DNA of 60,094 nucleotides. It comes from a phage. Location: sequence record PZ445424.1, one strand, 5' to 3'. Shown piece after piece: positions 5,631 to 55,148 of this stretch (positions within the stretch are counted from its first letter, which is position 1; each line of letters begins with the position of its first letter). A model generated the notes under the pieces. It did not search any database and was not told where the DNA came from. It saw nothing but the letters and a program-made list of their open reading frames with translations. Position numbers and translations under genes: made by a program.

Positions 5631-6284
5631 ATGAAGACATTAATTGAAGCATTGTTAGAACTTGATCCGGAAAACCCGAATCATTGGACCAGCGATGGCT
5701 TACCTAAAGTAGACGCTCTGCGTTTCGCTACCGCTAACCCGTCTTTAACCCGCGACGATATTACGACTGCTGCCCCTCTATTCACCCGCGATAACCGCGT
5801 GCTGGAAGAGCCCGAGCCAGTGGAACCTGTTAAATCTGCTGATCCAGTTTTACATGAAGCTGTCAAACAGGAGAAAGCTCATGAAGAACAAAAGAAAGTC
5901 GCGGTTGCAACGATGCAAATCGAAGTTAAGATTAGCGAAGCACTGCGTGCTCTTCTGGAGCCGGAAAAAATCGGTGACGCTTCCAGCTTAACCGATGAAG
6001 AACTGAAAGCGAAGCGCGAAAAGCTTAGCAATGTGGTTAAAGAGATTGCCCACACTAAGCACGCGTTGGAGCTCGCTATCGCAGACGTTCAAGCGGATCT
6101 GGATAAGATTATTGTTGAGCAGGAGCGTCGTCGCCCTAAGTCCGGTCTTACTGCAACTCAAATGTATCTTGAAGCGCAGAAAAAACGTAAACCTGAAGAC
6201 ATGCTTTCTGACCATCGCTTCCAGAATCCTATTGACGATCCGGTCGCCCGTATGGTTGCACGTAATATGATGCGTCGAGGTTAA
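5631..6284 (+). CDS. Hypothetical protein (charged, coiled-coil-like)
   Basis: 217 aa ORF in head module, RBS AAGGA; no recognisable motif. Confidence 0.4.
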   Translation: MKTLIEALLELDPENPNHWTSDGLPKVDALRFATANPSLTRDDITTAAPLFTRDNRVLEEPEPVEPVKSADPVLHEAVKQEKAHEEQKKVAVATMQIEVKISEALRALLEPEKIGDASSLTDEELKAKREKLSNVVKEIAHTKHALELAIADVQADLDKIIVEQERRRPKSGLTATQMYLEAQKKRKPEDMLSDHRFQNPIDDPVARMVARNMMRRG

Positions 6285-6339
6285 CCATGGAAATGAGCCA
6301 TAGACAATATGTGTTGTGGCTCCTCCGACGTAATAGAAA

Positions 6340-6367
6340 ACGGCGTCAAGAAGACGCCGTTTCTGTT
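6340..6367 (+). terminator. Putative intrinsic terminator
   Basis: ACGGCGTC-AAGAA-GACGCCGT hairpin followed by TTCTGTT. Confidence 0.5.
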
Positions 6368-6422
6368 CCTGAAGAAGAGCTCCCACCACTTATCCCTACA
6401 ACCATCGCAATGAGGAAGAAAG

Positions 6423-6929
6423 ATGGAGATTCCACTGATAGTTGAAGATGGTACTGGTGTACCGGACGCCAACAGTTATGTCACCATTGAACAAGTCCGC
6501 ATGTATGCAGCAATGCGAGGTATTGTACTTCCAAGTGAAGACGAAGATCTAAAGACAAAGATCTTTGACGCTATGGATTTTGTGGAAGGGTACAGCCAAC
6601 GCTTTAAAGGTTATAAAATTAACCCACAGCAACCGCTAAATTGGCCACGCTACGGGGTGTTTGTGGACGGGTTCGAGCTACCCCAAAGCCCCTTACCAAA
6701 GGCGCTTATAAACGCTGTTTGCCAGCTTACAGCGGACTCAGCTACTGGCGGTCCTCTTAATGGGAAAACTACTGCATATGCAGTCAAAAGAACTAAAGTA
6801 GAAGGTCTTGAGATTGAATACGCAACTGGTAGCACAGCACAGTCAGGTCCAGCAAAAACATATGATAAAGCTATGACGTTTTTATCACCTTTGCTGGGTT
6901 ATCAAATGGGTAATAGATTGATACGGTGA
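6423..6929 (+). CDS. Head-tail connector / head completion protein (putative)
   Basis: 168 aa ORF, position between capsid and tail genes. Confidence 0.4.
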   Translation: MEIPLIVEDGTGVPDANSYVTIEQVRMYAAMRGIVLPSEDEDLKTKIFDAMDFVEGYSQRFKGYKINPQQPLNWPRYGVFVDGFELPQSPLPKALINAVCQLTADSATGGPLNGKTTAYAVKRTKVEGLEIEYATGSTAQSGPAKTYDKAMTFLSPLLGYQMGNRLIR

Positions 6930-46027: not shown

Positions 46028-48358
46028 GCTTAAGTCTTTGAAAACACTCTCAATTGACTCGTCTATATACCATCCCAACCCCCTGAAATTACGCTTTAAC
46101 GCATCCTCACGTGTGACTGGGACGAGTGCTCCCATATCTACAAGTTGTTTGATAGTGAGGTCTGTTGCAGTACCTGCTCCCATCCTGTGATTCTTGAATG
46201 CTGCCAAGCCGTAGGTTCTGCGTGTGATGGTTGCCTTCGGAATAATACCGTCAACGCGCAGCTCCTTACGATCACATGCAATTTTACCGCCAAGATAGTC
46301 TTTGCAGACCTGACAGATAGCCTTCACACGCGTTTCATCATCACCACCGATAGTACCTTTTTCCCATGCGTTGATCATAATGTCCTGCCCATGCGTAACA
46401 AAATCTACTGCCCATTGCATGTGATTAGGCTGAACGACAGGATTGATCCAGTTTTCCCCAACTGCTAGCAGGGATGCAAGACGCAGAGCTTTAAGGTGTG
46501 CACGGTTCCACGGCTGACGAATTGCTTCGTCTTTTGTTGCGTTAATGTGTTCATCGCACAACAAGTTAAACTCCCGTTCAATCCTTTCCGCTTCAGGGCT
46601 TAACTGGACGGTAACGGTCTGGAACTTTGCCATTGTCACTAACGTGTGGTTAACGAGATGGCAAACCATGTCCTTTAATTGTTGTGGCATTGTGATTTCA
46701 GGATTTTCGTTTGCAGGAACACGATCCCCTTCATATTGCACAATGTGGAAACGGGACAAGAAACCGTCTTCCATCATTTCACGGGTTAATGCTTCAAAGA
46801 AGGTGTCCGGTGTTGTTTCACCCAGTATGCTGAATGCCACCCCTTCCATTGTCTTGGTATTATTAGCCTTATCAGAATATCCGATACCGCCAACAACATC
46901 CATCGCACCAGATTTTTGATACACATCTGTAATAGTTTGCTTCAAGGTGTAGTTCGCAGTGCCAGGCTGAGCTGTCGCCATACCTTTGATGGTTTTACCG
47001 AACTCACCGTTAATATTCACAAACGAAGTGTGATCCGCAAAACTTTTACGCAAGGCAGGACCGGAAGCATAGTTAGTCATATCTACAAATTCATGCACTT
47101 GCGGTAATTGCTCGCCCACTTGCTTACAAATATAGCTGGGCCCAGCGTGAAGCATTTCTTTACCCACACCTGATCGGGCAATGAGCACAAAGTAACCGTT
47201 CAACCCTGTATTGGTGATAGTATTCCACACCTTACCGCACACTCCGGATAAGAATGCTAACGATGCGGTGATTGCAATTTCTTTCACCGGACGCTGCGAT
47301 GCCTTGTAGATATACTTCGCAAGCTCCCCAGCAAGCCCCGGCGGCCATTCAATAGCGGTTGCATCAATGGACGTACTTTCTGCAACTACTATTTCACCGG
47401 ACGGGCTAACTGTGGTCACAGGCATTTCCGTTACCTGCTGCATTGCACTGTGTGCGGCTTGCATACGGGCAGCGTAATCCCGCGCCAGCGCCGCTACGTT
47501 TTCCTGGGCAATGCGCTCACGCTCCATGCGACCGCGACACATGCGCAAACAACGGTCAATATGAACATTGTTCTTATTAGCCTTCTCACGTTTGCCCAGT
47601 GCACTGTAACGGAACAGACGGCGACATTGCTCATTACTTTCTGTGTAGAATGCATACATGGAAATAAGGGCAAGATCTGCTTCAGACTGGGAAGGGAATC
47701 CCATTTCAACCCATTCACCATTGAATAGGCGTGCATACTTATCCCCGTTGTCCGCTTCAAGCGCACGCTGATGAATGGTTGCATCGTCTTCTACCGGATC
47801 TTTTTCTACCAGTTCAATTTCATATGTCTTGCGTTGAAGATCAATTTCATTCACAAGCATAGTAAGATAATGATCACGTTCTGCAACTGGTTTGTTATAG
47901 ACAGGATTGCCCGTGCAGATAATAAAACGCTCCTGACTATAAACTTCGACACCATCACGACGGCGACCTTTACCGATATTTCCTCTTAACCACAGGTGGA
48001 CACCCAAGCCTGAGCGACTTACTTCGGTGTAAGTATCAAACGCAGTCATGATCTGTTCGAAGCGGCGCAACTGCTCCGGCGTCGTGTGCTTCTTAGGATC
48101 CGGTTCATTGGTTGCATTCTTCACATCCAGGTCGATGCAGGTGAACGGGTCTTGCGCAGTAAGCACAAAGCCAATATAAGGTTTATTGAAATGAGCAGCA
48201 CAACCTTTGGCAGCTTCAAACGTCATTAGCATATCCGGATCGGTAACATCCGCAGCCATCAGGCGCCCGATATCGTTATCCCACACAAGCGGCTTTTTAT
48301 CCGCATCGGCGACCGCCCATTGTGGGAAAGCTTTAATTTCAGCGGGAAACAATTCCAT
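46022..48358 (-). CDS. Replication protein with primase-polymerase (Prim-Pol) N-terminal domain
   Basis: 778 aa; Prim-Pol motif I CIDLDV and motif II SRSGLGVHLWLRG; central SQSEADLAL resembles primase C-terminal region; possible P-loop VLIARSGVGKE. Confidence 0.6.
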   Translation of the reverse strand: MELFPAEIKAFPQWAVADADKKPLVWDNDIGRLMAADVTDPDMLMTFEAAKGCAAHFNKPYIGFVLTAQDPFTCIDLDVKNATNEPDPKKHTTPEQLRRFEQIMTAFDTYTEVSRSGLGVHLWLRGNIGKGRRRDGVEVYSQERFIICTGNPVYNKPVAERDHYLTMLVNEIDLQRKTYEIELVEKDPVEDDATIHQRALEADNGDKYARLFNGEWVEMGFPSQSEADLALISMYAFYTESNEQCRRLFRYSALGKREKANKNNVHIDRCLRMCRGRMERERIAQENVAALARDYAARMQAAHSAMQQVTEMPVTTVSPSGEIVVAESTSIDATAIEWPPGLAGELAKYIYKASQRPVKEIAITASLAFLSGVCGKVWNTITNTGLNGYFVLIARSGVGKEMLHAGPSYICKQVGEQLPQVHEFVDMTNYASGPALRKSFADHTSFVNINGEFGKTIKGMATAQPGTANYTLKQTITDVYQKSGAMDVVGGIGYSDKANNTKTMEGVAFSILGETTPDTFFEALTREMMEDGFLSRFHIVQYEGDRVPANENPEITMPQQLKDMVCHLVNHTLVTMAKFQTVTVQLSPEAERIEREFNLLCDEHINATKDEAIRQPWNRAHLKALRLASLLAVGENWINPVVQPNHMQWAVDFVTHGQDIMINAWEKGTIGGDDETRVKAICQVCKDYLGGKIACDRKELRVDGIIPKATITRRTYGLAAFKNHRMGAGTATDLTIKQLVDMGALVPVTREDALKRNFRGLGWYIDESIESVFKDLSK

Positions 48359-48364
48359 ATTTAA

Positions 48365-48568
48365 TTAAGACCTCCGACGCTTATCGCCTTGCATCTTTTC
48401 CAGGACGGGTTCTGCTAATGAACGTTTATAGATGTACACGCTACCGATTTTAATAGCGCCGGGAATGCATTCGCGCATTCTGGAGAGCTTAAATTTTGAA
48501 ATACCGAACTGGTTTTCAATTTCGGTAGTTGTTATATAGTTGTGATTAAATTCTTCGACGTGGGTCAT
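48365..48568 (-). CDS. HTH DNA-binding protein (AlpA/excisionase-like)
   Basis: 67 aa; ITTTEIENQFGISKFKLSRM helix-turn-helix-like; basic C-terminus; directly upstream of the Prim-Pol gene, as in AlpA-primase pairs. Confidence 0.45.
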   Translation of the reverse strand: MTHVEEFNHNYITTTEIENQFGISKFKLSRMRECIPGAIKIGSVYIYKRSLAEPVLEKMQGDKRRRS

Positions 48569-49376: not shown

Positions 49377-49476
49377 AATCCACCTGTACGCGTAGAAAGA
49401 AAGGTAATCATATAACAAAGTTTTTGTAATCGCAAAACCTTCGCAAAACTTTGTCTTTCCTGCATTATATTAAACG

Positions 49477-49706
49477 ATAGTGCTAGTGGCCAGCATAGTG
49501 GCATCACCGCTTATAGTGCGCCGTTACTGGCTTCACTATAGTGTGCCACTATACGCTCACTATACACTAATAACTAATTTTATTTTGTTTAGTGGTAATA
49601 AAGTTTTGGGTTTTTGGGGGAGACCCCTATATATCCCGGAAAAAACAAAGAAATAGTAGTAGTAGTGAAAAACATAGTGAAATGCCACTATCTCACTATC
49701 ACTACT
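49477..49706. repeat. Iteron-like cluster: at least 11 copies of hexamer ATAGTG/CACTAT including palindrome CACTATAGTG and (TAG)4
   Basis: Copies at 49477, 49495, 49513, 49534-49543 (palindrome), 49547, 49558, 49653-49667, 49674, 49686, 49694; followed by an AT-rich tract at 49740-49900. Confidence 0.6.
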
Positions 49707-50081
49707 AATTTAATGTGATTCATGGGGGTGTCTATGTACCAAAAACCTAAAACTTTCAGTCAACAGACTAAAAACGGATAGAAACTAAAAGTTAATAAGT
49801 AATACCATAAATATATATAAAATAAGGATTTATTAGTAATGTATATAGTACCTATTGGTATTATTTGAATGTTTTTGGGTCATTGTTAAAAAGTCCCAAA
49901 ACTCGCAAAACCTGAACGGATGCAGATCAAAAGTGAGAAGTCAAGTGCTTTTGAGGGAAATTTATTGAACTATTGTGATCGGAAGGTATATCAAGCTATA
50001 ATGCGCTTAATCGCGGGATATTGGAGGAGGACTTTATTGCGCGGTTAACCGGACCAGTAGGAGGGCTGGCCCGGAAGTAGT

Positions 50082-50408
50082 TTAGAGCTGTACAGGTGTG
50101 AAGTGGGTTAGCATATCGTCGGACATGATACCCGACAGTTTTTCGCTTACCCATTCGGACCAAATACTATCCGGTTCCTGGCGGTGCACAAACCAGATTT
50201 CGGATGTGCCTTCTTTGCGCATCGGTTGCACTTCTACAAGGAACTTGTCCTGCATAAGGCGGGTGAAGCATACGCTGGTCATTGGAACCGGCTTTTCGTC
50301 TTTATTGTAATAAGGAATTAATATTTTATTTCCGAAGTTGGCAACTTCATAAACTGTTCCTTTGCGAAGCCCTCTGATGTCTGTGTAAGAGAGGATAAAT
50401 GTTCTCAT
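50082..50408 (-). CDS. Hypothetical protein
   Basis: 108 aa ORF with GGAG RBS. Confidence 0.45.
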   Translation of the reverse strand: MRTFILSYTDIRGLRKGTVYEVANFGNKILIPYYNKDEKPVPMTSVCFTRLMQDKFLVEVQPMRKEGTSEIWFVHRQEPDSIWSEWVSEKLSGIMSDDMLTHFTPVQL

Positions 50409-50458
50409 GTTTACTCCTAGGGCTCCCGCAGAAGCCCGTTGGTTAATGTGGTTATAGA

Positions 50459-50941
50459 TTATGCGTCAAGTCCGTGGTTGGCGTGAAATTTGTAATGCTC
50501 TTCCGCTTGTTTACGGGCCTGTTTTGCGTCCTCTATAGTATCATATAAACCTAGATACTTTTTCAATCCGTTTATTTGAATGTAAGCCTGAAATTTACAT
50601 GCCTTTTTATTAAAGTAAACTCCTGTTACTCCGGTAGAGTTGTTTATTGCCCTGCTAAGATTTTTACTATTATCGCTTGGCAACACTAAGCGCAAATTCT
50701 CTATGCGGTCGTCCCATGTACAATGATTAATATGGTCTATTTGATGCCCTTCCGGTATCGGGCCTTTATGCAACTCCCATACTAACCTTGAACGACGATA
50801 TAGTTTTCCCTTGTATCCTATCAGGATGTATCCGCGCTTATTTGGTACACCAGCTTTACTACCGATAGAAATCTGTTTAGCTGGTTTTATTTTCCAAAAT
50901 AATTCTCCGTTTTGATAGCTGAAGATATTATTTAAGTCCAT
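50459..50941 (-). CDS. HNH homing endonuclease with AP2-type DNA-binding domain
   Basis: 160 aa; HNH motif EGHQIDHINH...NDRIENLRLV; AP2-like SGVTGVYFNKK...KYLGLYDTIEDA. Confidence 0.8.
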   Translation of the reverse strand: MDLNNIFSYQNGELFWKIKPAKQISIGSKAGVPNKRGYILIGYKGKLYRRSRLVWELHKGPIPEGHQIDHINHCTWDDRIENLRLVLPSDNSKNLSRAINNSTGVTGVYFNKKACKFQAYIQINGLKKYLGLYDTIEDAKQARKQAEEHYKFHANHGLDA

Positions 50942-51539
50942 GATAAGTTCTCCAAGCGTAGAACTGAATGGCGACCGTTGTCCCGTTGTAAGAAGGCATT
51001 GCAGCTTTCATTTCTTTCAGCTCCGGCGTGCGGCCCAGTTCGGCTAAAAGTTTGTCGCCCATTGCCCACACTTCGGCGGTTTTTCCTTTCAGAGGCTTGC
51101 GAGCGCCATTTTTGAAATCGCAGCGAGCAGCTTTTGCATCCTGTTTTGGCGCGGCAGCTTTTGGCTCTTCAATTTTGATTTCAGAAACCTGCGTGGCAGC
51201 TTTTGCATGTTTCATATCTTTCTCTTCCTCCTGCTCCAGAGCTTCGAGGCAGCTTTTGACAATTTCCGGATTTACCATCGGGCGCAGTACCGAGACGCTG
51301 GCAGCTGGCGCGGCGGTCGGTGCCGGAACTTTCTGCTCCGGCTGTTGCGCTTTTTTATGGTCGCGCAGCACCTGAAGCACTTCCTTCTCGACGATGTAAA
51401 AACCGATCTCGTCCTGATGGATTAGCTGTTCGTGTGCGTCGCGTGCAACCTGGCCCCAGCGGGTCTTCAGAGCGCGGCGTGCATTCGTTTTCATGGTGTA
51501 ACGCATTTTGTCCTGTTCGCGGTGAGTTACTTTAGACAT
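50928..51539 (-). CDS. Hypothetical protein (Ala/Pro/Lys-rich centre)
   Basis: ORF track 50928-51584 uses a GTG start; first ATG gives start ~51539. Local reading of the printed sequence showed a 1-nt inconsistency here, so the exact start is uncertain. Confidence 0.4.
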   Translation of the reverse strand: MSKVTHREQDKMRYTMKTNARRALKTRWGQVARDAHEQLIHQDEIGFYIVEKEVLQVLRDHKKAQQPEQKVPAPTAAPAASVSVLRPMVNPEIVKSCLEALEQEEEKDMKHAKAATQVSEIKIEEPKAAAPKQDAKAARCDFKNGARKPLKGKTAEVWAMGDKLLAELGRTPELKEMKAAMPSYNGTTVAIQFYAWRTYHGLK

Positions 51540-51612
51540 GGTATAGCTCCTTTCGTTAATATTAGTTTGCTTATTACTGCCCACCGTAATGATGAGCAGT
51601 GTATAAGAAAAC

Positions 51613-51861
51613 TTATTGCACGATTGCTACGAAATCGGCGGTTGCGATATCCATGCTTGCGAAAGCAACGATGCTATAGTCGGTGTCGTTGTCCGCGTTA
51701 AAAGCTTTGAGGAACTGCTGTACTGCTGCTTTATGGTTAAGAGTTACGTCGATAGCATAGTCCCAGCTATAGACTTTGCGCTTGCCAAAACCTTTAACTG
51801 CAATGCGAGCGCTTTTAGTGTTGGTTGGTGCCAAAAATTTGGTGACGATAGAAGTAGCCAT
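51613..51861 (-). CDS. Hypothetical protein
   Basis: 82 aa ORF. Confidence 0.4.
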   Translation of the reverse strand: MATSIVTKFLAPTNTKSARIAVKGFGKRKVYSWDYAIDVTLNHKAAVQQFLKAFNADNDTDYSIVAFASMDIATADFVAIVQ

Positions 51862-51929
51862 AATGTAATCCTCGTTTTGTTTAAGTTGACTTATTATTGC
51901 CCAGTCAGATCAACTAGGCAAGATATAAA

Positions 51930-52142
51930 TCACTTAATTTGTACCAAATCGTATTCTTTGTAAATTTCGCTAATGTACATATCGAACTGACCCATTAAGA
52001 AGATTTCGGCCTCCTCCCAGCTTGGGGCAGATACATAACCAGCTATTTTACCGGACGCGAGTTCCACTAATTTGAATTCCATGATGCAACCCTTAATGTG
52101 GTTAAGCAGTATTGCTTTGTTGAAGTAATAATAGCCTTGCAT
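51930..52142 (-). CDS. Hypothetical protein
   Basis: 70 aa ORF; first gene of the - strand block next to the divergent intergenic region. Confidence 0.4.
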   Translation of the reverse strand: MQGYYYFNKAILLNHIKGCIMEFKLVELASGKIAGYVSAPSWEEAEIFLMGQFDMYISEIYKEYDLVQIK

Positions 52143-52408
52143 CGTGATATTGAATAGGCCAAAAGTGCTATTTTAGATCTATTTCGTATCTATAGTTGCG
52201 CACATGCAGCTACGTAAAAATTTAGCGCGAACAATACTGCAGACAATATAGATTTTGTGTGCGTCTTCCATAGTGCAGATAACGTCTATTATGTTAAATA
52301 GCTAAGTTGTTGATTTATGGTATGCCCTGCAATGCATTGGATAGTTAAGTGGTCTAAGTTATTGTTTTAAAAGGAGTTAAAATTTTGCTGTCTGCCAGCT
52401 GTAAAACG

Positions 52409-52429
52409 TTATGTCATTTACTGACATAA
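52409..52429. promoter_or_regulatory. Perfect palindrome TTATGTCA-TTTAC-TGACATAA in divergent intergenic region (candidate operator)
   Basis: 8-bp arms, 5-nt spacer, within the ~600-bp non-coding region separating - and + strand blocks. Confidence 0.4.
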
Positions 52430-52759
52430 AATGTTGTCACCGAAATAGCACGTTTGGCCTAGACACAGATCAGGTCATGCGGTACTATATAGTCAAAGGA
52501 AAGGGAAGCAGAAGTTGCAAAGTACCAATCCCCGAGTAGTAAAGGTTAGGGAAAGCTGAATAGCTAAAGTACCTAACAGGTAGTCGGAAGGTGAATCGTC
52601 CGGATGAAAAAGGCCGGCAAGTGTTGAGACAAGGGCACGTTGAGTAACTCCCGAACAGGGGGTCTCCAAGACACCTTCTCCGGTCCTGCGGGATCCGGGA
52701 CTTTCCGGGACTACCAACCAAAGAAGCGACAAAATAGTAGACAAAGAGAGGTAGGTATC

Positions 52760-52903
52760 ATGACACGCAAATACACGCTTACACGCGCACAGCACGCGCT
52801 ATTATTGCAGGTCATGCGCATGGAGTACGAAGAGACTACATGGGCGCAGGCTATGCAGACAGGGCGTGAGTTCTACGCGCAACTAATAGCACAAAATGCC
52901 TAG
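52760..52903 (+). CDS. Hypothetical small protein
   Basis: Start refined to ATG 52760 (RBS GAGAGG); 47 aa. Confidence 0.35.
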   Translation: MTRKYTLTRAQHALLLQVMRMEYEETTWAQAMQTGREFYAQLIAQNA

Positions 52904-52961
52904 ACAACATGATCGGTCTGGTGGATACTACACACATCAACCAAACAACGGGGTAAACAAA

Positions 52962-53189
52962 ATGCGTAGTTTCAAATGTGTAAGCGTAAATGCTACTGGT
53001 AACGGTCTGTTCACAGCAGGTAATGTATATGACTTCAACATGGAAAGTTATAAAGACACAACGCTTACAGGTGTAATGTTCGGTGGCGCTCGTGTCGTTC
53101 GCTGCCATTTAAACAAGAACACGGAAAATGAATATACCCTTATCAGTCGCTACACGGGCGAGCCGTTAGCTGTGTTCCATGCAGCTTAA
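52962..53189 (+). CDS. Hypothetical protein
   Basis: Start taken at ATG 52962; 75 aa. Confidence 0.4.
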   Translation: MRSFKCVSVNATGNGLFTAGNVYDFNMESYKDTTLTGVMFGGARVVRCHLNKNTENEYTLISRYTGEPLAVFHAA

Positions 53190-53217
53190 GCTATAACGCA
53201 CACAGCGCCACGCTAGC

Positions 53218-53254
53218 GAGCTAATGCACATAGGCAATGGTAATGCATTAGCTC
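53218..53254. repeat. Perfect 11-bp inverted repeat GAGCTAATGCA / TGCATTAGCTC with 15-nt loop
   Basis: Read directly from sequence in the intergenic region upstream of the second HNH gene. Confidence 0.5.
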
Positions 53255-53265
53255 GGGCGAAACAG

Positions 53266-53318
53266 GCGCACAGCGTCGCGCACAGCTCGCACAGCGCACA
53301 CAGACCCACACAGGCCCA
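53266..53318. repeat. Imperfect tandem repeats of GCGCACAGC (about 5 copies)
   Basis: gcgcacagc gtc gcgcacagc tcgcacagc gcacacagac ccacacaggcc; an additional copy at 53197-53210. Confidence 0.5.
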
Positions 53319-53419
53319 GCCGTGCAACCCGACCCATCCTTTTCCAGGTACTTGGAGTGCTGGGGAGTGCCCTGTCCATCCTGATAGTAAGTCCTTGTCT
53401 AAATCTCACCTGTCACATA

Positions 53420-53432
53420 CCCCCCCCCCCCC
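53420..53432. repeat. Homopolymeric poly(C) tract, 13 nt
   Basis: 13 consecutive C in intergenic DNA about 100 nt upstream of the HNH endonuclease gene. Confidence 0.6.
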
Positions 53433-53530
53433 ACCTACCATAAAAAGTGACCCTTAGGAGTTTCACGCTTTCTATATACTGGGTTTAGTGCTAAAATATA
53501 GGTGATGTAAACTTGATCAGAGGCATTGAA

Positions 53531-54004
53531 ATGAACTGGAATAACATATTTGAATACAGGGATGGTGTTCTGTATTGGAAGGTGAGTAGACGATGTATAA
53601 ACGCAGGAGACAGAGCTGGATACGTTCAAGAGGACGGATACACGAGAATAGCATTTGAAGGCAAGCAATACCTGCGTCACCGAATAGTGTGGTTAATGCA
53701 CGGAAGAACTATTCCGGAAGGTATGGAAATTGACCACATTGACCATGACCGCCAAAATGACCGAATTGAAAATTTACGTTTAGTTACTGCTGTAGTAAAC
53801 TGTCAAAATAAAGGAAAATATATCAGTAACACAAGCGGCGTTACTGGTGTAAGCTGGGACAGAAAGAATTTAAAATGGTTTGTAACTATAAGAGTCAATA
53901 AAAAGAATGTATTTTTAGGTCGTTTTGACAAATTTGATGAAGCAGTTAAGGTACGAAAGGAAGCGGAATTGCTGTATAATTTCCACGAAAACCACGGTAA
54001 ATGA
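53531..54004 (+). CDS. HNH homing endonuclease with AP2-type domain (paralog of 50459-50941)
   Basis: Start refined to ATG 53531; motifs EGMEIDHIDH...NDRIENLRLV and SGVTGVSWDRK shared with the - strand paralog. Confidence 0.8.
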   Translation: MNWNNIFEYRDGVLYWKVSRRCINAGDRAGYVQEDGYTRIAFEGKQYLRHRIVWLMHGRTIPEGMEIDHIDHDRQNDRIENLRLVTAVVNCQNKGKYISNTSGVTGVSWDRKNLKWFVTIRVNKKNVFLGRFDKFDEAVKVRKEAELLYNFHENHGK

Positions 54005-54023
54005 TGGTTAAGCGGAGGAAATT

Positions 54024-54209
54024 GTGAGACTTGGACCTTATCTTGGTTTCTATGGTCGTGCTTTTTGGAATGATGAAACAAACAGGTTTGAAGGTTGGCT
54101 AATTACACCAGATCGTTTTACATTTCACAGTGTGAAAGAGAAGAACATCGTTCTTAATTTTCAAAAATGTGTCACTAAATATGTAGAGGAGCAAGAAGAA
54201 TGCGTGTAG
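54024..54209 (+). CDS. Hypothetical protein
   Basis: 61 aa ORF, non-ATG start in ORF track. Confidence 0.3.
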   Translation: MRLGPYLGFYGRAFWNDETNRFEGWLITPDRFTFHSVKEKNIVLNFQKCVTKYVEEQEECV

Positions 54210-54496
54210 AAGAAATTGTTGAAGGTAAAGAGTACCGTTTGCTAACCGATATCGGTGCTGTAGGCTATACTCCGGACGGTGCAGCTTGTTTTAATGTCTT
54301 ACCGCAAGCGGCAATTGTCACAGTTAATAAGGTTGTGACAAATTTATACACTACTTCGCCTGACGGCAATTGGCCACATGCTGTTATTGTCACCTTCGGT
54401 AAAGATGGTTATGTTGATCTTGAAGATGACGAAAATGACGCTTATGAAGTAAGTTATACCGGACTTGTAAGTCCTAATTTCCTGGAGGAAGTGTAA
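54200..54496 (+). CDS. Hypothetical acidic protein
   Basis: 98 aa ORF with RBS GGAGCAAG. Confidence 0.4.
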   Translation: MRVEEIVEGKEYRLLTDIGAVGYTPDGAACFNVLPQAAIVTVNKVVTNLYTTSPDGNWPHAVIVTFGKDGYVDLEDDENDAYEVSYTGLVSPNFLEEV

Positions 54497-54547
54497 TTAT
54501 CAATCTATAATGGGCTCTACGGAGCCCTTAATTATCTGGAGGTTGTT

Positions 54548-54847
54548 ATGCTGTATTTAGGAATGGACGAAACTGGACACGCAATTCCTTCTGTTAACAA
54601 AGAGACGCAAGTATTTACAGACTATTACGGGTCTGCTATCCCTGTAGAGCCCTGGGCTAACTTTATCGCTGTAGACGCAGACGGTAAAGTACATTGTTAT
54701 GACGCCAAACCTTCTTGCTATGAATCTGGTAAGCAATGGATGCTTGGCGTATACGGATCACATGTCCGCTACTGCGGTGAAGTTGACCTTGAAGGTATGG
54801 ACTGGCGCGATACGTTGAAGGAGATTACTACATATGTCCGCAGCTGA
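54548..54847 (+). CDS. Hypothetical protein (paralog of 32419-32676)
   Basis: 99 aa; shares C-terminal VDLEGMDWRDTLKE motif with the - strand ORF; RBS GGAGG. Confidence 0.45.
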   Translation: MLYLGMDETGHAIPSVNKETQVFTDYYGSAIPVEPWANFIAVDADGKVHCYDAKPSCYESGKQWMLGVYGSHVRYCGEVDLEGMDWRDTLKEITTYVRS

Positions 54848-54923
54848 AGTTACCACATTCATAATAGCTTTTGCGGTTGCTTTATTTCTTCTAGCTAAGT
54901 TAGATTTATTTATGGGGTGACTC

Positions 54924-55148
54924 ATGCGATTACTTATGGTTATTGGCGTTATAGTTGCCGCTTTCGTTGTATTTGAAATTGTAGACTCTAAAGAAATGGA
55001 GCGACAGAATTGCCAACGTACTGGTAACAGCCGGGATGATATCATTTGGCAATATATTTACGATGCAAAAGGTAACGTTATGTCAATGTATCCTCAGGTT
55101 ATTACTGAGTATGAATATAAATGTGATGACCGTAACAGGTGGAGATAA
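54924..55148 (+). CDS. Small membrane protein (1 TM)
   Basis: 74 aa; N-terminal hydrophobic helix LLMVIGVIVAAFVVF. Confidence 0.4.
   Translation: MRLLMVIGVIVAAFVVFEIVDSKEMERQNCQRTGNSRDDIIWQYIYDAKGNVMSMYPQVITEYEYKCDDRNRWR

Follow-up and report, generated by a model that had tools for sequence, protein, structure and literature searches.

Two probable free-standing homing endonuclease genes of the HNH-AP2 type, independently acquired, in the divergent early operons of Escherichia phage WildeMaa

The locus described here raises the question of whether two related HNH endonuclease genes act as an inverted pair on the DNA between them or are separate mobile genes. The window analysed, i.e. the whole 60,094-nt stretch of sequence record PZ445424.1, is Escherichia phage WildeMaa (Bas23, Seuratvirus) at 99.9% identity. 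HNH motifs occur twice in the window, in HNH-1 and HNH-2 only, which lie in opposite orientation with a gap of 2589 bp. Both open reading frames listed by the initial annotation are present with the coordinates given in Table 1, and the motifs it quoted, QIDHINHCTWDDRIENLRLV and EIDHIDHDRQNDRIENLRLV, were located in the pair. Its estimate by eye of about 40% identity was slightly low, since BLASTP gives 45% identity and 66% positives over 157 aa (E 4e-48), a similarity far beyond chance. With a probability of roughly 0.8, HNH-1 and HNH-2 were acquired independently of each other and are free-standing homing endonuclease genes of PHROG 99, residing in divergent early operons. The element type is an already known kind, namely that of ordinary phage homing endonuclease genes.

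Table 1. Features of the two HNH loci in the window (positions in PZ445424.1).
Feature	Coordinates	Strand	Description
HNH-1 (bas23_0074)	50459..50941	-	160 aa, ATG start, HNH endonuclease with AP2-like domain, free-standing
HNH-1 3' end	50459..50479	-	right junction of the insertion, AACCACGGACTTGACGCATAA
bas23_0075	50928..51539	-	host gene receiving HNH-1 at its 3' end; PHROG 22313
Recoded bas23_0075 3' tail	50928..50954	-	embeds GGAG ribosome-binding site and the ATG of HNH-1
HNH-2 cassette leader	53422..53530	+	extended -10-like element; AGAGG ribosome-binding site before ATG
HNH-2 (bas23_0081)	53531..54004	+	'putative homing endonuclease', 157 aa, ATG start, AP2-like domain, free-standing
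orf61 (bas23_0082)	54024..54209	+	PHROG 24875

In GenBank, bas23_0074 is labelled as 'hypothetical protein' only. For bas23_0081, a TTG codon upstream at 53513 is an alternative, unlikely start.

Both proteins match PHROG 99 (E 1.3e-62 for HNH-1 and 1.1e-64 for HNH-2), and their homologues amount to more than 3000 phage records. The HNH motif proposed for both open reading frames was borne out by the Pfam profile HNH_3 (PF13392), which scored 58.3 bits in HNH-1 and 64.1 bits in HNH-2, above its gathering threshold of 24.8 bits. An alignment of 22 sequences shows no variation at D69, H70, N91, or N94 and almost none at N82; it drew on a word-index search of a protein database with 21 homologues, a sample adequate for modelling and not a census. 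The D-H, NLR, and N residues of HNH-2 align with the catalytic motif of I-HmuI (PDB code: 1u3e). In the AlphaFold2 model of HNH-1 (mean pLDDT 88.8), a beta-beta-alpha core is formed by strands 67-70 and 83-86 and helix 88-94.

The AP2 part of the initial annotation holds at the level of fold but not at that of the Pfam profile. AP2 (PF00847) scored 15.3 and 16.6 bits in the two proteins (E 0.026 and 0.0096, respectively), both below the threshold of 33.3 bits, and a precomputed match to this profile was found in just three of the 21 homologues. Single-sequence searches of the PDB with the C-terminal 65 aa and with full-length HNH-1 returned nothing meaningful. In the model, residues 108-149 of HNH-1 fold into three strands (108-111, 116-123, and 126-133) followed by a helix (136-149). 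Solved AP2 domains superimpose on this C-terminus: that of AtERF1 (PDB code: 1gcc; 33% identity, probability 1.00) over 48 columns with an rmsd of 1.5 A, and that of TEM1 (PDB code: 7et5; probability 1.00) over 49 columns with an rmsd of 1.7 A. A further match, to 3igm, has a probability of 0.91, and the whole-chain Foldseek E-values of these AP2 matches are weak (0.08-0.3). An AP2-like C-terminal fold is therefore supported by structure, as modelled for HNH-1.

It had been suggested that the inverted pair could promote inversion of the segment between the genes, or gene conversion between the two copies. The genes are indeed homologous and inverted with respect to each other, and relatives differ strongly in the 2.6-kb segment between them. 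Homologous recombination, however, generally calls for perfectly matching stretches of roughly 20-30 nt. By blastn, longest common substring, codon-register identity, and a repeat search, the two genes were found to be only 53% identical at the DNA level in codon register, with a longest common exact run of 9 nt and a best local match of 37 nt at 76%, and no inverted repeat of at least 14 nt connects them. Since the DNA identity is too low, the HNH pair cannot flip the segment. When gene order was compared with relatives, as had been proposed, each HNH gene proved to be present in some and absent from others, and all twelve relatives were collinear with the window over 47.0-57.5 kb (blastn), with no inversion. 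The pair does not explain the variability of the interval either, which is equally high whether a phage has a single HNH gene or lacks both; many indels at 52.2-53.2 kb occur among relatives that lack any HNH gene. An inversion would presumably also turn the divergent early operons into convergent ones, cut off from their promoters. Inversion or inter-copy conversion driven by these genes is thus so improbable that it can be set aside. The opposite orientation of HNH-1 and HNH-2 reflects instead the co-orientation of each gene with its own divergent early operon.

The term 'paralogous' stands insofar as the two genes belong to one family with 45% protein identity, but not in the sense of a local duplication. 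Judged by their relatives, HNH-1 and HNH-2 are independent acquisitions from one family, because each has closer relatives in other phages (53-59% identity for HNH-1 and 58-66% for HNH-2) than in its neighbour (45%). Their distribution is sporadic. Among about 31 Seuratvirus genomes, the HNH-1 allele is present in four, and the 100%-identical protein is found only in CAjan, KS_A3, KS_S4, and WildeMaa. The HNH-2 allele is likewise present in four of the about 31 genomes, its protein being 100% identical in Skure and 96% identical in Dru_SM1 and phiG7; a 66% variant occupies the same site in SA80RD. WildeMaa is the sole carrier of both genes in this set. Greed and SeppeHuegi lack an HNH gene at either site, slur01 has the empty bas23_0075 allele, and CAjan has the HNH-less orf61 allele. 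An IMG/VR census by exact junction patterns yielded three contigs, one with HNH-1 and an empty HNH-2 site and two empty at both, which is consistent with this distribution, three contigs being too few for statistics. The claim that these are free-standing mobile HNH genes is accordingly upheld by their sporadic occurrence in close relatives, clean empty sites, mosaic junctions, and linked flanking alleles, which are described below for each gene.

HNH-1 is a 466-bp net insertion within the last codons of bas23_0075, and the empty sites are clean. The tail of bas23_0075 reads TGGAGAACTTATCATGGACTTAAATAA in carriers and TGGCGCAAATATAACGGACTGGACGCATAA at empty sites such as that of Skure. The recoded tail, with 7-8 substitutions in about 20 nt, is present in all four HNH-1 carriers and in none of the nine non-carriers examined, while the 100 nt upstream of it are nearly identical in carriers and non-carriers. 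The ancestral tail core, TGGCGCAAATA(T/C)AA, is conserved in 9/9 of the non-carriers examined, and the last few codons vary. At the other junction, HNH-1 ends on codons (G L D A, stop) that ancestrally closed bas23_0075. A metagenomic contig (L014) carries a 59%-identical HNH gene at the same site with the same 3' junction. Among carriers, HNH-1 is 99.0-99.6% identical at the nucleotide level, whereas the 3' parts of their primase genes are 90.9-92.1% identical to that of WildeMaa; the nearest relatives of WildeMaa in the backbone, Skure, Greed, and SD04 (all 94.9%), are without HNH-1. These identities clearly point to a recent lateral spread of the HNH-1 allele among its carriers. The predicted target site of HNH-1 is the tail of the empty bas23_0075 allele.

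HNH-2 lies in a cassette of about 700 bp (about 53422-54121). On its left side, homology to HNH-less phages stops at about 53421, next to the leader, whose identity to the window is 97.8-100% in Skure and SA80RD and 84% in SD04. A C13 tract lies within 53415-53432, where the window differs by 4 nt from MZ501112.1. The latter phage shares the leader and has two small ORFs in place of HNH-2. The extended -10-like element of the leader, TGCTAAAAT at 53489-53497, may serve as a promoter. The left-junction motifs CACCTGTCAC and CCCACCTACC were not enriched in the window. On the right side, the cassette extends into orf61, whose HNH-linked allele comprises the first ~100 nt of the gene (54024 to about 54121) together with a new GGAGG ribosome-binding site and GTG start (54012-54026). 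This 5' allele was found in 5/5 HNH carriers and 0/8 HNH-less phages, i.e. in perfect linkage across 13 phages. Compared with the window, orf61 is 93.5-97.8% identical in the four other carriers and 77-79% identical in the eight HNH-less phages; the differences are dense up to about 54121, beyond which both classes share the 3' 75 nt. At the start of the gene, five synonymous changes fall in the first five codons of the conserved MRLGPY; the corresponding start of the HNH-less allele in Greed is ATGCGATTAGGTCCATATCGCGGCTATTATGG. The 5' end of this HNH-less orf61 allele is the predicted target of HNH-2. Among the HNH-2 copies, only that of Skure looks recently shared, with 99.6% nucleotide identity to the WildeMaa copy against a backbone of 94.9%; those of phiG7 and Dru_SM1, at 93.7-95.1%, are at backbone level.

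The observations made here are the family assignment, the sporadic distribution, the exact junctions, the linkage of alleles, and, for HNH-1 and the Skure copy of HNH-2, a nuclease gene identity higher than that of the backbone. By analogy with studied systems such as T4 seg/mob and I-HmuI, we infer nuclease activity, target sites, and actual homing for HNH-1 and HNH-2. The likely scheme can be described as follows. In a mixed infection, the nuclease encoded by a carrier would nick or cut the HNH-less allele of the neighbour gene in a co-infecting relative, i.e. the 3' tail of bas23_0075 for HNH-1 and the 5' end of orf61 for HNH-2. Repair templated by the carrier genome would then transfer the nuclease gene, together with a short stretch of flanking DNA, to the recipient, and the recoded flank of the carrier would protect its own DNA. 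Both cassettes carry translation signals of their own and leave the neighbour genes intact: the ribosome-binding site and ATG of HNH-1 are written into a look-alike bas23_0075 tail, and the HNH-2 cassette provides orf61 with its new ribosome-binding site and GTG start.

The genes may instead be inactive or irrelevant passengers, moved by ordinary homologous recombination in a mosaic region. The region is a mosaic hot spot in which nuclease-free cassettes are exchanged too, as in SD04, where the alternative cassette was swapped at the same place, and passive movement by ordinary recombination is therefore possible. The frequent indels at 52.2-53.2 kb without an HNH gene and the internal mosaicism of the SA80RD variant of HNH-2 also fit such exchange. 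Against it, both open reading frames are full length with intact catalytic residues, and HNH-1 has kept its near identity on backbones differing by 8-9%. Moreover, the recoding sits exactly at the insertion junctions with the amino-acid sequence kept, which is expected for target-site protection and is not predicted by passive exchange. Purely passive movement is hence considered unlikely.

It is less likely still that the two proteins are domesticated nucleases serving the phage, whether by degrading host or competitor DNA, by excluding related phages, or as AP2-type regulators of early genes. Both genes are located in early operons beside the divergent promoter region, and phage AP2-domain proteins can reportedly be transcriptional silencers (bioRxiv 10.64898/2026.02.23.707548); homing and domestication are also regarded as indistinguishable by sequence analysis alone (PMC10448857). 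However, either gene is missing from most of the genus, so that no conserved phage function rests on them, and neither adjoins a terminase, unlike the HNH nucleases of HK97-type packaging.

The combination of HNH and AP2 is a recognised homing endonuclease architecture (Magnani et al. 2004, as cited in PMC10448857). Members of this family in phages, cyanobacteria, and protists (PHROG 99) have the same order of an HNH part and a C-terminal AP2-type domain of three strands and a helix, and are small (about 160 aa), free-standing, and sporadic; the AP2 part of the present proteins differs in scoring under the Pfam gathering threshold. The 'IPA-HNH' genes of phage ICP1 (PMC10448857) differ from the present genes, in which the HNH part is a canonical HNH_3.

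The closest solved structure by sequence is I-HmuI, the intron-encoded nicking HNH enzyme of Bacillus phage SPO1 (E 1.1e-5 with residues 31-95 of HNH-2), and it is also the closest fold to the HNH-1 model (Foldseek E 6.6e-4, probability 1.00). Common to both are a beta domain at the N-terminus, the metal-binding beta-beta-alpha core, and the D-H...N...N residues. The C-terminal DNA-binding part of I-HmuI is reportedly helical with a helix-turn-helix, and not AP2. I-HmuI also sits in a group I intron, whereas the present genes are free-standing, between or overlapping open reading frames, and no intron was detected by Rfam. A group I intron or structured RNA around the HNH genes was rejected on the basis of Rfam scans: the whole window gave no match at the gathering threshold, and within 49.3-54.3 kb a search by E-value turned up nothing beyond a chance snoRNA match (E 0.094). 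Separately, the fold of the 270-nt leader at 52489-52762 is no better than that of shuffled versions (z -0.81).

The 'intronless homing' of the T4 Seg and Mob enzymes resembles the present case in that the gene lies between or overlaps conserved genes and that the target is predicted in the neighbour gene of genomes without the nuclease. In T4-type homing, polymorphisms protect the carriers, and the DNA beside the gene is converted along with it over short tracts. A general description of free-standing homing of this type is given in PMC10448857. The domains are different: Seg enzymes are GIY-YIG, and Mob enzymes are HNH with a zinc finger, not AP2 (PMC10448857). In addition, activity was shown for several T4 enzymes; that of the two genes described here is predicted.

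A tentative extension, which we consider possible though doubtful, is that both positions are long-lived homing 'slots' of Seuratvirus in which one diverged nuclease allele is exchanged for another. A second allele is known for each slot, namely the 66% HNH-2 variant of SA80RD and the 59% HNH-1 variant of the metagenomic contig, with identical or nearly identical junctions, and the N-terminal and AP2 DNA-binding parts of the SA80RD variant are just 50-60% identical at the nucleotide level. If true, the slots would represent a natural swapping of the specificity modules of homing endonucleases at a fixed site. In Seuratvirus DNA, dPreQ0 replaces about a third of dG (PMC8594841); slots in phages carrying this modification would imply nucleases that tolerate 7-deazaguanine.

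The value of the result is mostly housekeeping. The product of bas23_0074 is corrected from 'hypothetical protein' to HNH endonuclease, the inversion hypothesis is removed, and both sites are flagged as places where gene conversion will distort whole-genome phylogenies of Seuratvirus. Beyond this, the exact junctions and the two predicted targets, the tail of bas23_0075 and the start of orf61, make homing by this family testable in an accessible collection of E. coli phages (BASEL), as well as whether such enzymes cut dPreQ0-modified DNA.

From 49500 to 55000, the window matches Escherichia phage WildeMaa (Bas23, MZ501112.1; 60,090 bp), a Seuratvirus of the Queuovirinae, at 99.9% identity, and about 31 other Seuratvirus genomes at 88-96%; subtracting 535 from a record coordinate gives the window coordinate, as far as about 53.4 kb. 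The two related ORFs reported in the initial annotation, HNH-1 (bas23_0074) and HNH-2 (bas23_0081), are both present as described, and their proteins share 45% identity over 157 aa by BLASTP (E 4e-48). The HNH motif proposed for them is borne out, as both proteins score well above the threshold of Pfam HNH_3; they are assigned to PHROG 99 'HNH endonuclease' (E about 1e-63), and no further HNH motif occurs in the window. By sequence, the one relative with a solved structure is I-HmuI, an HNH homing endonuclease (PDB code: 1u3e; E 1.1e-5); its D-H, NLR, and distal Asn positions align, and D69, H70, N91, and N94 (HNH-1 numbering) are invariant in an alignment of 22 sequences. The AP2 motif proposed alongside is sub-threshold by sequence in both proteins (15-17 bits versus a cut-off of 33.3), but it is recovered by structure: in the AlphaFold2 model of HNH-1 (pLDDT 88.8), a C-terminal unit of three strands and a helix superposes on the AP2 domain of AtERF1 (PDB code: 1gcc; rmsd 1.5 Å, 48 columns, probability 1.00) and on that of TEM1 (PDB code: 7et5), while the best whole-chain match is I-HmuI. 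The observation as a whole is confirmed, and proteins that join an HNH nuclease to an AP2 domain are recognised as a family of homing endonucleases (PMC10448857).

Features of the HNH region, in window coordinates
Feature	Position	Strand	Remark
Region amid leftward genes	49420-50081		~660 nt, GC about 40%
Inverted repeat, 18-nt	49600-49617 / 49739-49756		94% complementary
HNH-1 (bas23_0074)	50459-50941	-	GenBank label: hypothetical protein
22-nt motif	52151-52172	-	
22-nt motif	52444-52465	+	
Untranslated leader	52489-52762		270-nt
22-nt motif	52885-52906	+	
ORF with C13 tract	53224-53457		
ACAT	53415-53418		absent from MZ501112.1
C13 tract	53420-53432		
Extended -10-like TGCTAAAAT	53489-53497		HNH-2 cassette leader
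HNH-2 (bas23_0081)	53531-54004	+	GenBank label: 'putative homing endonuclease'

By tblastn against all 50,697 phage records, the HNH-1 protein is found at >=99% identity only in four phages (WildeMaa, CAjan, KS_A3, and KS_S4), and the next-best match is 53%. The HNH-2 protein is found in four as well (WildeMaa, Skure at 100% identity, and Dru_SM1 and phiG7 at 96%), with a 66% variant at the same position in SA80RD; remaining matches are 58% or less. Both genes occur together in WildeMaa only. In IMG/VR, a 60.7-kb contig combines the HNH-1 junction with an empty HNH-2 site, and both sites are empty in two contigs. A metagenomic contig carries in the HNH-1 slot (477-959 of the contig), with the same 3' junction, a gene for a protein 59% identical to HNH-1. 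Each HNH gene is closer to genes of other phages than to its neighbour; the two were acquired independently and did not arise by local duplication. Diverged alleles thus named, at 66% and 59% aa identity, are seen in both slots with identical or near-identical junctions. A third Seuratvirus HNH slot lies at the junction of the primase and the next gene (about 48361-48365) and is empty in the window; in Dru_SM1 and SA80RD, a 174-aa HNH protein, about 51-53% identical to HNH-1, is encoded immediately 3' of the primase gene (836-1360 and 835-1359 of the respective comparison loci), and a stretch of ~50 nt from the 3' end of the primase gene (window 48312-48361) flanks the insert on both sides.

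HNH-1 lies at the 3' end of bas23_0075 (PHROG 22313), which in nine HNH-less relatives has the common tail core TGG CGC AAA TA(T/C) AA. The full empty-site tail, seen in Skure, slur01, Greed, and SeppeHuegi, ends AAC GGA CTG GAC GCA TAA (W R K Y N G L D A, stop), and in three of these four the next gene follows after a spacer of 50 nt. In all four carriers the tail reads TGG AGA ACT TAT CAT GGA CTT AAA TAA (W R T Y H G L K, stop), a look-alike embedding, in a different reading frame, a GGAG ribosome-binding site and the HNH-1 ATG, with an overlap of 14 nt between the genes. HNH-1 itself ends CAC GGA CTT GAC GCA TAA (50459-50479), so it uses the final codons and the stop that bas23_0075 had ancestrally; the insertion adds a net 466 bp. 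Seven to eight linked substitutions are packed into about 20 nt of the tail, and the preceding 100 nt are nearly invariant in all 13 genomes. Nucleotide identity among carriers is 99.0-99.6% for HNH-1, the primase segments of these phages match that of WildeMaa at 90.9-92.1%, and the nearest backbone relatives of WildeMaa (Skure, Greed, and SD04, each 94.9%) all lack HNH-1.

At the second site, homology to HNH-less phages ends at about 53421 and restarts at about 54000, and where the HNH-2 cassette would be, these phages carry unrelated sequence of about 245 bp. The cassette leader, with its extended -10-like element and an AGAGG ribosome-binding site, may function as a promoter, and the cassette provides the downstream gene orf61 (bas23_0082; PHROG 24875) with a new GGAGG site and GTG start. 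Over its first ~100 nt (to about 54121), orf61 exists as two allele classes perfectly linked to the presence of an HNH gene, and the last ~75 nt are common to both; the identity of orf61 to the window is 93.5-97.8% in the four other carriers versus 77-79% in the eight non-carriers. The first six residues, MRLGPY, are kept with all of the first five codons differing. The SA80RD variant (5650-6427 of its locus) is an internal mosaic, 100% identical to HNH-2 in the leader and last ~25 codons, 80-93% in the HNH core, and 50-60% in nucleotides in the N-terminal and AP2 parts.

Sporadic occurrence, a fixed site, and recoded flanks are together the usual signature of a free-standing homing endonuclease gene, and they support the mobility claimed initially. 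The recoded flanks would protect the carrier and mark a short tract of co-conversion; for both proteins, cleavage, target sites, and homing are predicted. Passive movement of the HNH genes by ordinary recombination is a minority possibility, favoured by the mosaicism of the region persisting without a nuclease gene, as in the Aeromonas phage SD04. There (6060-6690 of its locus, against window 53441-54004), the HNH-2 leader with its promoter-like sequence is kept at 84% and is followed by two small ORFs, one of them coding for a hydrophobic peptide of 31 aa, before HNH-less sequence resumes, which suggests alternative cargo behind one common leader.

The C13 tract at the left junction of the cassette is the sole window homopolymer passing a scan for at least 8 C/G or 9 A/T, and Skure has C4 there. 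It lies inside the 3' end of an ORF, so its length sets the C-terminus of that ORF; the tract, which ACAT immediately precedes, may be prone to slippage or may reflect uncertainty in the assembly.

Neither the inversion initially suggested nor gene conversion between the two copies is supported, since the gene DNA is 53% identical in codon register and the relatives are collinear (12 of 12). In register, no identical run exceeds 8 nt; in any register, the longest exact common string has 9 nt, blastn aligns at best 37 nt at 76%, and no inverted repeats of >=14 nt joining the genes were found. Nor is the pair needed to explain why the interval varies, since it also does so in phages that have a single HNH gene or lack both. 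The layout of the operons accounts for the opposite orientations: leftward genes extend to 52142, rightward genes begin at about 52760, and between them lie promoter-like sites and a 22-nt motif in three copies. This motif, AATAGCACnnnnGsCCTAGACA, is confined to the divergent early region (three observed versus 0.12 expected by chance), and the TAGACA end of both rightward copies is the -35-like hexamer of a promoter-like site; the sites are probably early promoters with a common upstream or operator element. The untranslated leader, running from the rightward promoter-like site to the first rightward ORF, is present in some relatives only (SA80RD, 83%), has no Rfam match, and folds no better than shuffled sequence (z -0.81). 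The region at 49420-50081 gave no convincing ORF and no Rfam match; it holds several promoter-like sites besides its inverted repeats.

Where phages exchange genetic material, nuclease genes are known to lie at the boundaries (PMC10448857). Overall, HNH-1 and HNH-2 are a well-known kind of element, already so annotated in sister phages, and the useful by-products are precise junctions, a pair of predicted target sites, and the correction of one annotation.
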